From: a virus
Lineage: Duplodnaviria; Heunggongvirae; Uroviricota; Caudoviricetes
Strand: one strand, 5' to 3'
Virus record (IMG/VR): IMGVR_UViG_2778261559_000026
DNA length: 31,691 nt
Shown here piece by piece: positions 21,901 to 30,900 of the stretch (the first letter of the stretch is position 1; each line of letters starts with the position of its first letter). The position numbers are program-made.

Positions 21901-24900
21901 CAGACGATCCCAAACAGGTGATTCATATCGTTCACAGTTATGATCGTAAAAGCTGCGGTGATCCAGAATGTAAACCTTATCTTTCGCTACACCTAAGATG
22001 GTAGACTCTGCGCGGTCTAATTGCTGGTCAATTCCTGAGCACAAGAAAATCACGTCATCAGGGATATTCTCGATAGAAACATCTGTTTTGAGTTGTTCCA
22101 GTTCATTTGCTTCTACTGCCGTGTCCTGATCGTCGTATACCTTGCCTAATACGGTGTTATAAAATGATTGTAAATCAAAGGATTGCCACGCATGACTAAA
22201 ATCAACCACACAAGCGCGGATCGTGCTGAAAGGTGAATACAGACGACTGATCCAGAATCCGGCTACTTCACTTTCACGGGTTGCTCTCCACTCGCCTTGT
22301 GCTACTGCCCTGATTCGTTCTCCTTCTGTCCATGCGTTCTTACAGTGGGGGCAAATATAACGAGCGGTATCAGGATCGGGTAAGTTCTTACCATCGATGT
22401 TACGCCATTCAAATTGAACGTTTTCCCACTCGATCACCTGGTGTTCCCCGCAATGAGGACACGGAACAAAAAACATACGCATATCGCTTGATAACCATTG
22501 CTGGTTAATGCTTCCCAGCTTACTGGTCGGGGTACTGGATACGACTAATCGACCTTCATCGCCAAAGGTAGTTAAACGGTTAGCAGCCAGTGCCACCGGA
22601 TCACCTTCTTCTGAGGCTGTGGCAGCATCGATTTCGTCAAGCAATCCAACCTTTGCGGTCTTACCGCGTAGGGTTGATGGACTGGTAAGCGATACCATGT
22701 ACAGGAAGTGATTCGTTTTTAACTGGAGTTGGTTATTGTTGTTAACCGCATTACGATCATTCTTGTCTGTAACCACGTCTTTCAATGCATCACATGCTTC
22801 GATAGACGGTCGGATCTTACCCGCGAGATATTGCGACATTTCTTTAGCGGTTGATTGTCCGATAATCATATTGCATGGATCGTTAGCCATCTGGTTAAAC
22901 AGGATACCGTTTAGGATGGTAGTTTTTCCGATCTGCGCACTGGTCATCAGAACATACTTTTTCTTATTCTCAAGGAAAGGAGCATCAATCATGCCTTTCT
23001 GGAATGACAGCAATTTAACTTTATCCCCCGCTTGAGGACCATCTACCAGCACCATATTCGCTTCGCACCATTCAGAAGGAAGGAGTTTAGGCGGTGGCGT
23101 AATATATTTTGCGGCATTTTTAAGAATCTTTTTTAATTTGGCCTTGTTCGAAATCAGTTTCATGTAATTACCCTCATTACGAAATATGAAGGTATTTATT
23201 AAATTGTTGATATTTTGATAAATATGGTATTAAGATTTAAGGGGGTTGTATGCTAATTAATCAGCAAGAAAGAGATGAATTAGAATTAGCCTTGTCTTGT
23301 ACCGATCATGAATATCGTTTGCCAGTCAAGCATAAGCATTTAAAGACTGACTACACAACATCCGGCTTTAGTCGCGAGGAAGCGAAAGAGATTTTAATAG
23401 AGTTTTACCGCGATAATGGTTATAGAGACGTTCGCAACTTCTTTAGCAAGCATCGCACATCACATACAGAGTTTCGGAGAGTCCGAGATTGGTTTGATTT
23501 TGACATTAAGCGGTTTTACAGAATCGACGATGGTCCGATCTATCGGTTGCAATGGAAGCCACTAAGGGAAGTGTTTAAGCATGAAAGGCTAAATCACGCT
23601 GTTACACGCTATCGTAACGAGGCTTTCAAGAAAGGGTATGGTGATACAAGGGAATTGTTCGTTGAACTCGCTAACGTGCGATATAGCCATTATTACAACG
23701 ATCCTAAAGGGTTCTTTGAAGTGCTTCGCAAGGTGGATATTAGTCGAGGTACATACTATTCACGGTTGAGGCAGTACGGGATTAAGGCAGAGTTCTTTAT
23801 GTCGGTTGACGATGGAGAACTTTTTCCTATAAAATGTAAGTCCTCTAAATAAAGGTGAACATTCACTTTAATTTGGAGAAAATGACTATGACTACTAAAG
23901 CTACTCGCGGTCGTCCTTGCCGTTTTGATCGTGAACAACTGGCAGCGATTGTAAAAGCGTACTATCAAGCGCCGAAAGGTAAAGCCGAAAAAGAACAAGT
24001 ATTGAGTGAACACGGTATTTCAATCGCTCAATTCTACAAATCACTCCATAAAGTTGATTTGAAATTCTTTGTTCAGGTTGACGGTGAAATGGTAGAAGCA
24101 ACAGGAATTTGATTCTCTAGGCCAATCCTTCGGGGTTGGCTTTTTTATATCCGCTCAAAACTGAGCACATCTCTAAGTCATTGATTCTTCCGATGAGTCC
24201 AGATTTGGACTGATCTATAGATGCCCTCAAAACTGAGGGGATGTGCTTAAAGTTCAGCGTATCTATCTAAGTGGTTGATTCTTTCGAGAAATTCAAACTT
24301 GAATCAATCGGCGCAAAACTGCGCTCATCTCTAACCTATTGATTCTTCCGATAAATCCAAATCTGGATGCATCAGATACAAAAAAGCCCAGCGCAATTAT
24401 GCGCCGGGCGATTAATCAGATCCCAAAATCAACAAGGGAAATTACGTTACCTGATTCACGAATCTGTTTAGCAGCTTTGTTTTGAATCAGAATAGTGTTA
24501 TTTGGCTGCGGTAGTTTAAGAGTTGCTTTCTGTTCTTCTTCCAAAACGCCCAATTCAACCAGCACCGGAAGAACATCAACAGTAAACTCAAGTTGGTAGT
24601 GAGCATTCATGCGGCAGAAAGACAGAGAAGAGTCATTAGCAACATACCCACACGGCTTGTTATTTTCATCATAGACGCGCTCAATGTATCCAGCAGTACG
24701 TAAGGCCGTCAGTGCTTCTTTAACCTTCGTAGCGCCCTTTTTAGCGCCTAACAGACGTGTCATAGAATGGCTATCTACGGATTTGCGAATGTGTAGCTCA
24801 ATCAGTTTTTTATTTTTGCGTTTTTCATCTAATGCCAGTTCGATCCAATCGGTTTCTTCAAAGTCTGCATACGGGTTAACAGGAGTATTATTGGCGGTTT

Positions 24901-27900: not shown

Positions 27901-30900
27901 CATCGTGAAGCACTGATCGCGGCTGGCTTTGGTGTTGACGGTAAACTGCCTAACGGCATTCGTAAAGCAATCGACCGCGTTAAACCTGCTAAAGACGTTG
28001 CAGTAGACCACATCGTTACCTTTACCGTTAAGAACTCTTCTGAACTGTTCCACCTGGTGATTGCTGGTGATACTGCTATCGTTTCCGCTCCTAACATGGA
28101 TTTTCAGGATACCGCTGATTGCCAGATCACCTTCGGTCGTCGTAAAGAAGTTACCGGAAAAGCTAAACTGAACTTCACTAAATCCGGCAATCCTTATTTT
28201 TCTGTATTCTTTAACAGCCACGCTACAGAAAAAGAAGTAGTAGAAGTGGTTGCGTATGAAGGTGAATTGAAAGAACGCATTGAATCTTGTGAAGCATTCC
28301 TGGAACTGGAAGCACAGGTGAATGCTGTTTCTCCGCGCTTTACTTCACTGGAAGAAAAAGACCAGATCATCGAAGCACAGAAAGCTGAGATTGAAAAACT
28401 GAAAGCTGCACTGGAAGAAAAAGACCAGATTATCGAAGCACAGAAAGCTGAGATTGAAGAACTGAAAGCTAAAGAAGTTGCTCCGGTGGCAGTAGTTGAA
28501 AACGCGGCTGATGAGGCCGCAAATGATGAAGTAGAAGTGAAAATTGATGTGATGCGCGATCCGATGGCTGCATTAAACTTGCTTCGGTCCTTCAAGGGAA
28601 AATCCTATTTCTCTAGTGATGTAGAAGACGAGGAAGAACAGAAACGCAATACTGCAATGCTTCATGATGAAATGTACGGTACTAACTTTTCTTACTGCCA
28701 ATAAAAAAGGGACTCCGAAGAGTCCCTAGTAAGTTTAGGTTAGGTTTGCACAACAAAGATGAGGTTATAATGAACATAATGCTACATTATTCTTTAAAGC
28801 CAGAAAAATAACCGCCCCCTTCGGGGCGGGAGGATTAATACTCAATCTATACTTGTTATGTTTTTGTGTTGTATGATCACTGATTATGAAAACACTGTAC
28901 TGGAGTGTGTTTTTATGGCTTTTAATCGGGAATCCTCAAAGAAGATCCCCTGTTAATAACCATAAGGAGAAAAGGCAGATTACACTATTATTTAGTATCC
29001 TTTTTACAGCAACTAAAAAGAATAAACAAAAAGAAGCATACCCAGCCGTAAGGCGTACCGATTAGAAATTTGAAAAACACCACCAGCGATATAAAAATCA
29101 ATTTAATGCCAGCGACGATAGTCAAAAACAGCAGAGTAGCAAAGTAGACCAAAAGATCCATAGATAATCCTCTTTGAAAACGACCATCATCTATAGTTCA
29201 ATTCATCGATTTAATTAATGATACTTGAAAGCGTTACACACAGCAGAAATGCCAATATGTGCCAGTGAATATACGATAGTTAATCCTACAGTAAGATAAA
29301 TCAAAAATTCAACCATAGGTAAATCCTCAAATAAGAAAAAGGTTAGCGGGGGGTGATTCCCCCCGTAGACGTTGACCAGCTCAACATCTTTCATACATTT
29401 ATTTATAACGCGTTTTAAGACACATCAAATTCATCGTCTTCTTCTGGTTCTTGTTCCGGTTCATCCATTAATGGTAATTCTTCTTCCTGGTCTTCTCCCA
29501 AATCTGCATTTTCGAACAAGTCCCCTACTTCATTTAAACGACGCTCGATGATCTCCCTTAGCTTATTCTTCAATGTTTTCTGATCAGTGGCAGATTCGAG
29601 AATTTCTAAAGCGTCGATTGTGGCGATCTGCAAAATAGTCTGTTTCACCTTTCCGCAATATTCCGCTAGTTCCTGTTCTACATACCCGACCGGAATAAGC
29701 AGATTCATTGCCTCCTGGTTCTCTCGTTCGGCTGCATCCGCTAATGCTCTCTCACGGCGTAATTTTTCTACGTCGATTTGTTCCCTGATAGAAGTGTTTT
29801 TTAACGGGTTAATGATGTTCTTTAGGACCCAATCACATCCTTCTTTCGCCGGGACACGTCTTGTATTTGTGTTATAAGGTAGACCCCTTTCTATCCATCG
29901 CTTACCGCCACCATTCAATGAATAGCCGTATAAACGGGAAATTTCTGTAAGGGTTAATTCTTCTTTCATTGGTTATCCTCCATTAAATTTGCGTAATTTT
30001 ATTTATTGGTTTTACGCAAAATCTAAGCGCCTAAATCGCATTCTAACGAAGGGAAAGATCCAGTAATGGTAAGGGTTAGGAAGGGGGGTTAATAGTCGCG
30101 TAGCGACCGCGCCATGAGTGAAGTGATCACGTTTTAAAATCTCACACGCACATCAAATACCGGGGTGCCGAAAACTCCCTTTATTTCATCCGTGGAACAG
30201 TACCTTTTTAATTTGTCAAGCATTAATTTCTTAATTTAATTACTAAATCTCATCCCAATAATTGAAAAAATATCAAAAATCAATAAAGTAAGCATCTAAA
30301 AGTCAGTCCATACCAAAAGAGGTATAAAATGAAAAACATTATCGCTGCTATCGTGCTTTCTGCTACTGCTTTCGGTGCTGATGCTGCGTCCTTTGATTGC
30401 ACTAAGGCTATAACCAAATCAGAGAAGTTTATTTGTGCTAATGAGTCAATCTCCGCACTGGATTCTAAACTTCATGAAGTATATGTTAAGGCTGTTAAGA
30501 TTGATCCGTCTCTTAAACAAGAGCAACGCAACTGGAATAAAACTGTTCGTGATACAATGATCAATATCGGGCAGATTCAGCCACTGGAGGCTGTATACAA
30601 CGCTCAAATCCAAAACTTGATGAATGTATTATCTAAAGAAGAAACCGCGTCAGAGAGCGTTACAGATGATTCTGCAAAGGTTGAAGAAGAACAACCGAAA
30701 CAGGAAGAAGTAAAGAAACTGAATGTTACCGCGATTTACGCATGTACTGCAAAATTTACATGGAATGTTATCGATGGTGAGGAAACAGAAGCTGTAAAAG
30801 ATTACTTATACGGAAACAAAGATCATGATGATAAAGGCGGTAAACTTAAAATCAAACTGGTAGATGATGTTCCTGTGTCTTTTGTTTACACCGACAAATA

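Follow-up and report, generated by a model that had tools for sequence, protein, structure and literature searches.

We analyzed a 31,691-nucleotide stretch of DNA from a tailed phage of the Caudoviricetes (IMG/VR record IMGVR_UViG_2778261559_000026, hereafter the window), with emphasis on the 6.3-kb interval that separates its small and large terminase genes, terS and terL. A gene-free gap in this interval contains an array of short direct repeats (array A), and a neighboring gene codes for a protein of 318 residues (p318). Among relatives of this phage, five types of repeat pair one to one with five types of p318 N-terminal domain, and this pairing is independent of terS and of p59, the gene that lies between the array and p318. 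Our preferred reading, which we hold tentatively, is that array A and p318 constitute a replication origin and its initiator. The interval as a whole is a conserved backbone module, probably for early control and replication, of an uncharacterized temperate siphophage lineage in E. coli, Salmonella and Proteus. It is not a cargo insertion, because its gene order and its gap recur in every relative examined from these three genera.

The gap is approximately 1.4 kb long (26085-27453), lies between the divergent p155 and p59-p318 operons and keeps both its length and its position in all relatives. An Rfam search gave no match there, with nothing at E <= 1. Array A (26712-26886, plus strand) comprises six to eight direct repeats of TTTCAGGGGCAAAA, all on one strand, with start-to-start spacings of 13-44 bp that are mostly 21-22 bp; this repeat occurs nowhere else in the 31.7-kb window. 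The corresponding arrays of relatives contain between 7 and 20 copies with a spacing of about 11 or 22 bp, those of Proteus being mostly at 11 bp or multiples thereof. Array A is flanked on the p155 side by a GC-rich hairpin block (26417-26711) with GCGAAGC and GCGTAGC mini-hairpin motifs, and on the p59 side by an AT-rich block (26887-27060, GC content 21-25%) that is the proposed DNA-unwinding region. When nine loci were profiled, the GC-rich block (50-60% GC) was present on the p155 side of the array in all nine, and the AT-rich block (21-25% GC) was clear on the p59 side in the window and five others, with the gap being AT-rich throughout. The GC-rich block also travels with the iteron type, as the version present in the window is found only in relatives with type 1 repeats. 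The motif GCGAAGC, which folds into very stable mini-hairpins in DNA and is also present at the origins of single-strand phages, is enriched in the p155-proximal half of the gap, the half that holds the GC-rich block, with 12 copies in six loci. The gap additionally contains two palindromes that are conserved across genera. One is the 12-bp palindrome CTTTCTAGAAAG (26320-26331), a candidate operator, and the other is TTGACAtgTGTCAA (27081-27094), which is composed of back-to-back -35-like hexamers and coincides with a rightward promoter-like site (27081-27109).

The p318 gene (27748-28704, plus strand) codes for a basic N-terminal specificity domain (residues ~1-160, hereafter the N-domain) followed by a coiled coil and an acidic C-terminal region, and we propose that its product is an iteron-binding initiator. 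Orthologues of 310-370 residues neighbor the array in relatives. The first ~160 residues have a pI of 9.8 in the window and of 8.3-9.8 in six of the eight proteins that were compared, and the remainder of the protein has a pI of 4.1-4.9. The coiled coil contains a 63-nucleotide tandem repeat (28343-28468) that varies in copy number among strains, with protein lengths of 298, 313, 318, 340 and 361 residues. The C-terminal regions are shuffled independently of the N-domains, and most alleles end in -AA. Such ends resemble the ssrA-type tails recognized by ClpX, and would be in keeping with an initiator that is unstable. When 1.84 billion representative proteins were searched with the N-domain, only three true clusters were recovered, plus spurious matches to repeat proteins, and no member of any of the five N-domain groups has a Pfam or PHROGs match outside of the coiled coil. 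The structural model of the N-domain, which is of moderate confidence (pLDDT 71), predicts an alpha+beta fold with 8-9 strands, and contains no helix-turn-helix and gave no match to a repressor.

The repeats of relatives fall into types T1 (CAGGGGCAAA), T2 (ATCCCTAG), T3 (CCTACACTAG), T4 (TGTACAAG) and T5 ((A/T)TCCCCG), and these pair with p318 N-domain groups G1 to G5 with zero mismatches in 35 unique loci. Specifically, the pairing was observed for T1/G1 in 30/30 cases, for T2/G2 in 3/3, for T3/G3 in 19/21 and for T4/G4 in 2/2, in addition to T5/G5; in the two T3/G3 exceptions the array is cut by an insertion sequence (IS). Three of these pairs cross genus boundaries, with T1/G1 and T3/G3 both occurring in E. 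coli and Salmonella and T2/G2 in Proteus and Salmonella. This pairing is not a matter of simple linkage, because the commonest allele of the intervening p59 gene, allele 'a', occurs together with T1, T2, T3 and T5 repeats, and also because the window is itself a recombinant in which segment 26889-27748 is of different ancestry than the T1 array and the G1 p318 gene that flank it. The alleles of p155, of the Rha-like gene, of p74 and of terS likewise each assort independently of repeat type, and the structural genes of phages that differ in repeat type are 87-100% identical. This pattern identifies p318 and the repeats as a clear protein/repeat specificity pair, with p318 probably binding the DNA through a domain of an unrecognized type.

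There are several reasons for preferring an origin. The GC-rich block, with an AT-rich block that is clear in six of the nine loci, flanks the array as in iteron origins; those of the RK2 oriV type have an array with AT-rich and GC-rich blocks. From one related phage to another the repeats change together with the N-domain amid otherwise free recombination, which is the pattern exhibited by lambda O and its ori. The GC-rich block is tied to the iteron type, and GCGAAGC is enriched in the half of the gap that holds it. Finally, the phage has other plausible regulators, namely p59, p74, p200, the Rha/Ant-like protein and the palindromes at 26320-26331 and 27081-27094. In the mechanism that we propose, the basic N-domain of p318 would read the repeats sequence-specifically, the coiled coil would oligomerize the bound copies, and the resulting complex would open the adjoining AT-rich DNA and recruit host replication proteins via the acidic C-terminal region. 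The small proteins p59, p74 and p200, together with the Rha/Ant-like protein, would regulate transcription at the lysis-lysogeny and early-late switches. The module is laid out as four short operons around a ~1.4-kb gene-free center that holds, in order, an AT-rich block, 6-20 phased direct repeats and a GC-rich hairpin block.

Other observations weigh against an origin with p318 as its initiator. DnaA boxes are not enriched, as the window has 8 matches with at most one mismatch versus 8.2 expected (one match, 8/9, is located near the array at 26925). No helicase, loader or primase partner is recognizable, and the AT-rich block is unclear in three of the nine loci profiled. In neither sequence nor fold does the p318 N-domain resemble any Rep, O or winged-helix initiator. 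Diversification into five types among phages that are otherwise very similar is also typical of immunity regions, and a design in which a DNA-binding domain precedes a coiled coil and a tail sensitive to proteases would fit the Mu repressor equally well. That members of the p318 family represent a new class of phage replication initiator, with an unseen DNA-binding fold, at least five interchangeable specificity types and no recognizable phage helicase or loader, is a more doubtful proposition. If true, p318 along with p155, with a conserved tail of acidic and aromatic residues that could dock on a host replisome protein, would represent a minimal host-replication takeover for a 35-kb phage.

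The main rival reading, which the same domain design and the -AA tails would also fit, is that p318 is an immunity repressor of the Mu/D108 type that has the repeats as its operators, with the five types constituting heteroimmunity groups. The array is indeed situated between the divergent p155 and p59-p318 operons, adjoining the back-to-back -35 palindrome. Five specificities among phages with such similar structural genes are what an immunity region typically shows, and the complete prophage has no other obvious annotated repressor. The Mu/D108 repressor (c) and its operators O1-O3 share with p318 and its array an N-terminal domain for DNA binding (putatively so in p318), a coiled coil in the middle, a C-terminal tail that possibly controls proteolysis, many short repeats between divergent early promoters and the existence of heteroimmune variants, to which the five p318 types would correspond. 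We nevertheless consider a repressor less likely than an origin. The p318 gene follows the Cro-sized p59 gene on the same strand rather than being divergent from the lytic operon, and p59 does not co-vary with the array, whereas a Cro protein would share the operators. The p318 model has no helix-turn-helix and the protein has no similarity to the Mu repressor domain. Furthermore, an array of 6-20 same-strand repeats in helical phase, all in one direction and with AT-rich and GC-rich flanks, is more origin-like than operator-like. Regulation could also rest on other candidates, such as Rha, the three module proteins (p59, p74 and p200) and the palindrome at 26320.

Comparison with known origins shows how far an origin with p318 as its initiator follows established systems. 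As proposed for p318, lambda O is a phage protein of ~300 residues with an N-terminal domain that reads a repeat array. In addition to the pattern of co-variation, p318 resembles O in being probably unstable and in being encoded in a rightward early operon after a Cro-sized gene. The two proteins differ in that p318 has no sequence or fold similarity to O, has a coiled coil and a long acidic region, and has no recognizable P-like partner. The repeats of ori-lambda are four inverted-repeat iterons inside the O gene, whereas those described here are 6-20 direct repeats that in the window lie outside the p318 gene, ~0.9 kb upstream. The iteron plasmid systems R6K gamma-ori/pi, RK2 oriV/TrfA and P1 oriR/RepA resemble the phage locus in having same-strand, helically phased repeats (with a period of 21-22 bp in the window) that are flanked by a GC-rich block and, at the other end, by an AT-rich block (clear in six of the nine phage loci profiled), and in encoding a cognate protein nearby. 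They differ from it in that p318 is not a winged-helix Rep protein, in that DnaA boxes are not enriched in the window, in that no plasmid homologues of p318 were found and in that the element is an integrating phage.

We also compared the interval among relatives, which bears on the possibility that it is accessory cargo, a moron or a defense hotspot situated between terS and terL. The interval is present in all 22 IMG/VR relatives found via terL and in all 34 found via the 200-residue protein p200, and block 20000-24150 is conserved in all relatives. The order common to these phages, which recurs in about 35 E. coli relatives and in Salmonella and Proteus, is terS, small open reading frames (ORFs), then on the opposite strand genes for proteins of ~60 and ~310-340 residues, and then the gene-free gap of 1.37-1.46 kb. 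Beyond the gap there follow a gene for a ~152-residue protein, one for a ~50-64-residue protein and a Rha-like gene, then on the opposite strand genes for proteins of 74 and ~200 residues, and finally terL. Gene order is unchanged even in Salmonella and Proteus loci that have other integration sites and a TerS that is 53-70% identical to that of the window. Variation among relatives is allelic and mosaic, with the lone gene replacement being in the Rha slot of Proteus. In megablast searches the interval matched 63 of 5,426 complete E. coli genomes (~1%), a count that includes partial and decayed copies; only two of the 63 matches cover >=80% of the interval at this stringency, and some are IS-decayed remnants. 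Cargo would be in keeping with the fact that all of the proteins are unknown, that GC content is low, that the alleles are mosaic and that the Rha slot holds other genes in Proteus. We nonetheless regard cargo as highly improbable. The gene order and the gap are retained in every relative from three genera, the interval has no integrase or transposase of its own and gave no PADLOC matches, and the phage would have no candidate early genes without it. A satellite or other mobile insertion was likewise rejected, given that there are no recombinase genes in the interval and that it is present in every relative.

These comparisons also bear on what an earlier, sequence-only reading of the window had said of the interval. 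A variable cargo hotspot, which it had raised, is contradicted by the recurrence of the same synteny and the same 1.4-kb gap. It had also named the interval as the most likely place for an undescribed replication, regulation or defense module. Regulation and replication are supported, as the complete 34.7-kb prophage of strain PD23 has, outside of the interval, no gene annotated as a repressor or for replication. Defense is not, since PADLOC models gave no match below E 0.005 with the proteins of the interval and none that was credible. The statement that no protein matches a canonical repressor or replication gene was upheld by family and PDB searches for all proteins except the Rha/Ant-like one. 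Specifically, the others have no match in Pfam, NCBIfam, PADLOC or PHROGs, and PDB sequence searches with four of the proteins returned chance matches only. The interval is consequently the likeliest seat of regulation and replication, because its own proteins are unmatched and no such genes are found elsewhere in the prophage. Megablast of the interval gave no DNA match in the phage collection, and tblastn with terS, p155 and three p318 N-domain types found none among phages and plasmids. A profile scan of genome contigs with the p200 alignment also found nothing, and two of three large protein searches returned E. coli copies that were >90% identical and so added no diversity. We found no description of this phage lineage in the literature.

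Two further explanations concern array A. Short repeats at ~11-bp phasing and a coiled-coil binder resemble ParR/parC, so p318 and the array could form a centromere-like partition or silencing complex, and since the array lies between promoters such a complex could silence both of them. We judge this to be highly improbable, as no ParA, ParM or TubZ-type NTPase is encoded, the element integrates via a serine integrase and was found only on chromosomes, and tblastn of plasmid records found no p318 homologue. A cosB or pac-like packaging recognition site for terminase is a similarly improbable reading of the array and was rejected. Its position between terS and terL would fit such a site, and Nu1 of lambda does bind repeated sites (R sites). 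Against this reading, the terS genes of the window (T1) and of the T3 phage L001 are 96% identical, terS alleles are independent of iteron type, and a separate conserved non-coding block directly upstream of terS occupies the lambda-like cos position.

Irrespective of its exact function, this module provides a handle on an undescribed temperate phage lineage in which the early genes are all orphans. The five natural protein/repeat pairs form a swap series for addressing how a putative DNA-binding domain without known relatives reads DNA, and they could supply mutually non-interfering origin or regulator parts. The position of the interval also indicates that terminase genes of the Nu1/GpA type need not adjoin, which is relevant to the annotation of prophages and to the search for cos sites.

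The sequence-only reading had stated that terS and terL are split by about 6.3 kb, and the measured distance is 6,251 bp, with nine ORFs on both strands in between. Its assignment of the two genes to the Nu1 and GpA types is supported by PHROGs (phrog_57) and Pfam, respectively. The terL gene (21256-23163, minus strand) codes for a GpA-type large terminase of 635 residues (Pfam GpA_ATPase, 1.6e-56; GpA_nuclease, 2.6e-44; phrog_15, 5.7e-137) and is the first gene of the late (head-tail) operon. The terS gene (29415-29969, minus strand) codes for a Nu1-family small terminase of 184 residues that matches phrog_57 over nearly its full length (1.7e-10). Note that phrog_57 is the family of lambda Nu1, which itself scores 1.3e-76, with the Proteus and Salmonella TerS orthologues scoring 1.3e-22 and 2e-17, respectively. 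The window TerS has no match to Pfam Phage_Nu1 and no significant BLASTP match to Nu1. Its AlphaFold2 model (pLDDT 72) contains an N-terminal segment of helix and short strands, long helices and a disordered acidic tail. The N-terminal segment, as judged by eye, may be a winged helix-turn-helix, and a Foldseek search with the model gave nothing significant, the best weak match being the MerR-type protein BmrR. The likeness to the lambda terminase operon (cos, nu1, A) thus lies in a Nu1-family TerS and a GpA-family TerL, and in the succession of terL, a head-tail joining gene, a lambda-type portal and a protease-capsid fusion. The difference is that nu1 (191-736) and A (711-2636) overlap in lambda, whereas terS and terL of the window are separated by 6.25 kb and four operons, with terS having its own terminators. 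The remaining genes on the minus strand form a normal siphovirus late operon, which from the GpA-type terL and the head-tail joining protein continues through portal and capsid to the tail genes.

Downstream of terS there are two small membrane-protein ORFs of 57 and 59 residues (28988-29394, minus strand) that have no family matches, and the terS operon ends at two intrinsic terminators (28708-28829, minus strand). Upstream of terS is a conserved non-coding region of ~250 bp (29970-30220) that stops at ~30220 in E. coli relatives and that includes the 13-bp palindrome GTCGCGTAGCGAC, which is also present in the Salmonella loci L036 and L037. This region is a candidate cos site, for which its position is lambda-like, or a candidate terS promoter. 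A 37-nucleotide similarity (73% complementary) between the region upstream of terL and p200 and that upstream of terS was considered as a shared promoter and rejected, as the segment concerned is variable and the similarity probably reflects chance. Among isolated phages the closest TerL is 43% identical and is encoded by Escherichia phage DCP80 (L023; PQ671644), a 141-kb record that is classed as a T4-like Gaprivervirus. The first 13 kb of this record (1-13.6 kb) resemble a lambda-type head module after 1.3 kb without annotated genes, so the record may be chimeric.

As regards the other genes of the interval, the ORFs that the sequence-only reading had listed all exist, with lengths of 200, 85/74, 299/277, 51/48, 155, 79/59 and 318 residues plus the two small membrane ORFs. 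The terminators that it had described as insulating genes were also recovered, with 12 terminator-like sites that bracket operons versus 5.9 +/- 2.3 in shuffled sequences. Adjacent to terL, divergent from it and always linked to it, is the gene for p200 (23250-23852, plus strand), a basic protein of 200 residues (pI 9.3) with no family match. It is followed by the gene for p74 (23882-24112, plus strand; ORF of 85 residues), a small basic protein, and by the intrinsic terminator of this p200-p74 operon (24119-24142, plus strand). On the far side of the gap, p59 (27454-27633, plus strand; ORF of 79 residues) is the first gene of the rightward operon and thus occupies a Cro-like position. The two small basic proteins had been called paralogous, which agrees with a 42% identity between the 85- and 79-residue ORFs (E 2e-11). 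Each carries one copy, and p200 two copies, of a ~60-residue module, such that the three proteins together contain four copies. In hhalign comparisons the p74/p59 family aligned to p200 residues 133-194 with a probability of 94% (E 1.4e-7) and to residues 40-102 with a probability of 73%. As judged by eye, the module combines a GRP arm with a helix-turn-helix-like segment and is putatively DNA-binding.

Between the p200-p74 terminator and the convergent terminator of the Rha operon lies array B (24146-24376), which is composed of small hairpin units with stems that show compensatory changes. Relatives contain from none to ~6 units and in many of them the two terminators abut, so array B is dispensable. 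Of the two iteron-type arrays that had been reported from the sequence, array A is therefore iteron-like, and array B is real but consists of hairpin units that are missing from many intact relatives; for this reason array B was rejected both as a functional iteron array and as a cos site.

The leftward operon comprises p155, p48 and the Rha/Ant-like gene and ends at an intrinsic terminator (24386-24409, minus strand). The description of its 277-residue product as Rha-like is supported by a match to phrog_63 (anti-repressor Ant, 1e-15), with a further match to phrog_4936 (2.4e-9), and these matches assign it an N-terminal DNA-binding domain of the pRha/Ant family. The gene (24416-25249, minus strand) codes for 277 residues in public genomes, with the ORF of 299 residues reaching 25315. 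Allelic versions of this protein match Pfam Phage_pRha (PF09669), and the allele of the window falls under the Pfam threshold. The Rha slot is the most allele-rich of the module, with eleven allele clusters. In L002, L003, L006-L010, L014, L017, L019, L020 and L022 the terminator of this operon copies the type 1 iteron in palindromic form (GCCCCTGAAATTCAGGGGCAAAAAT). Phages with a type 3 array have this terminator as well, and the terminator of the window differs at this position.

Upstream of the Rha/Ant-like gene is p48 (25348-25494, minus strand; ORF of 51 residues), which codes for a small basic protein with a pI of 10.1, and just upstream of p48 there is a strong sigma-70-like promoter (25553-25581, 11/12 matches). 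The p155 protein (25617-26084, minus strand) consists of an N-terminal domain that by eye reads as alpha/beta, then an acidic linker and a C-terminal motif, and it has no family, PDB or phage match. The C-terminus, DDDDYAPxxFSSxxGxYGYDEGLD(I/M)L-COOH, is encoded at 25617-25700 in the window, where it ends in -GLDIL, and is kept from E. coli to Proteus. This tail loosely resembles acidic tails and clamp-binding peptides that dock on replisome proteins, a resemblance that is speculative. A 27-nucleotide element with copies at 25318-25344 and 27373-27399 (89% complementary) lies ahead of both p59 and the Rha-like gene, with each copy oriented alike with respect to its gene, and may be a shared regulatory site. 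The boxes AATTGTTC and TTTATAAA were rejected as regulatory sites because their enrichment is only marginal, as is that of short boxes within the 27-nucleotide element.

The window is a partly deleted E. coli prophage of ~30 kb that was inserted into hicB by a serine integrase. Contigs that code for an identical 184-residue protein place the prophage between yncJ-hicA and ydcR. In the complete genome of PD23, hicB is split by the 34.7-kb element into one piece without the C-terminus and another without the N-terminus, and the window contains the hicB pieces at 31341-31691 and about 901-1017. The lysogen retains hicA and a HicB protein that lacks the C-terminal ~22 residues and has gained 8 phage-derived residues. 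The prophage junctions have only ~2 bp in common with no long direct repeat, which fits the large serine recombinase encoded at 2537-3949 (phrog_95, 1.3e-55). Relative to PD23, the integrase of the window is 470 versus 559 residues long and the J-like tail tip protein 599 versus 1217 residues, with the two truncated genes meeting tail to tail (2537-5584). The lysis cassette of PD23, which includes a D-Ala-D-Ala carboxypeptidase-type enzyme, is absent from the window, and this copy of the prophage is probably defective.

Remnants of the same prophage at hicB are found in E. coli PK5074 (L038; NZ_CP072802, 707-715 kb) and in other E. coli genomes where IS1/IS3 left a few tail genes, part of p318, terS and the LprI gene. 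The prophage ends carry probable morons, with an LprI-family (lysozyme inhibitor) secreted protein encoded at 30329-31108, in a segment that differs among relatives, and a 137-residue signal-peptide protein at 2075-2488. An ORF amid the tail genes (6050-6823) matches homing endonucleases (phrog_314, 3.8e-25). ARAGORN predicts a tRNA-Glu (16414-16504, plus strand) antisense to the head-tail ORF at 16269-16772; the unusual length of this tRNA, 91 nucleotides, raises the possibility of a false positive. Finally, a gene for a long-tail-fibre-like protein of 1142 residues (11924-15352) lies in the middle of the head-tail cluster between two major-tail-like genes, which is an unusual position.

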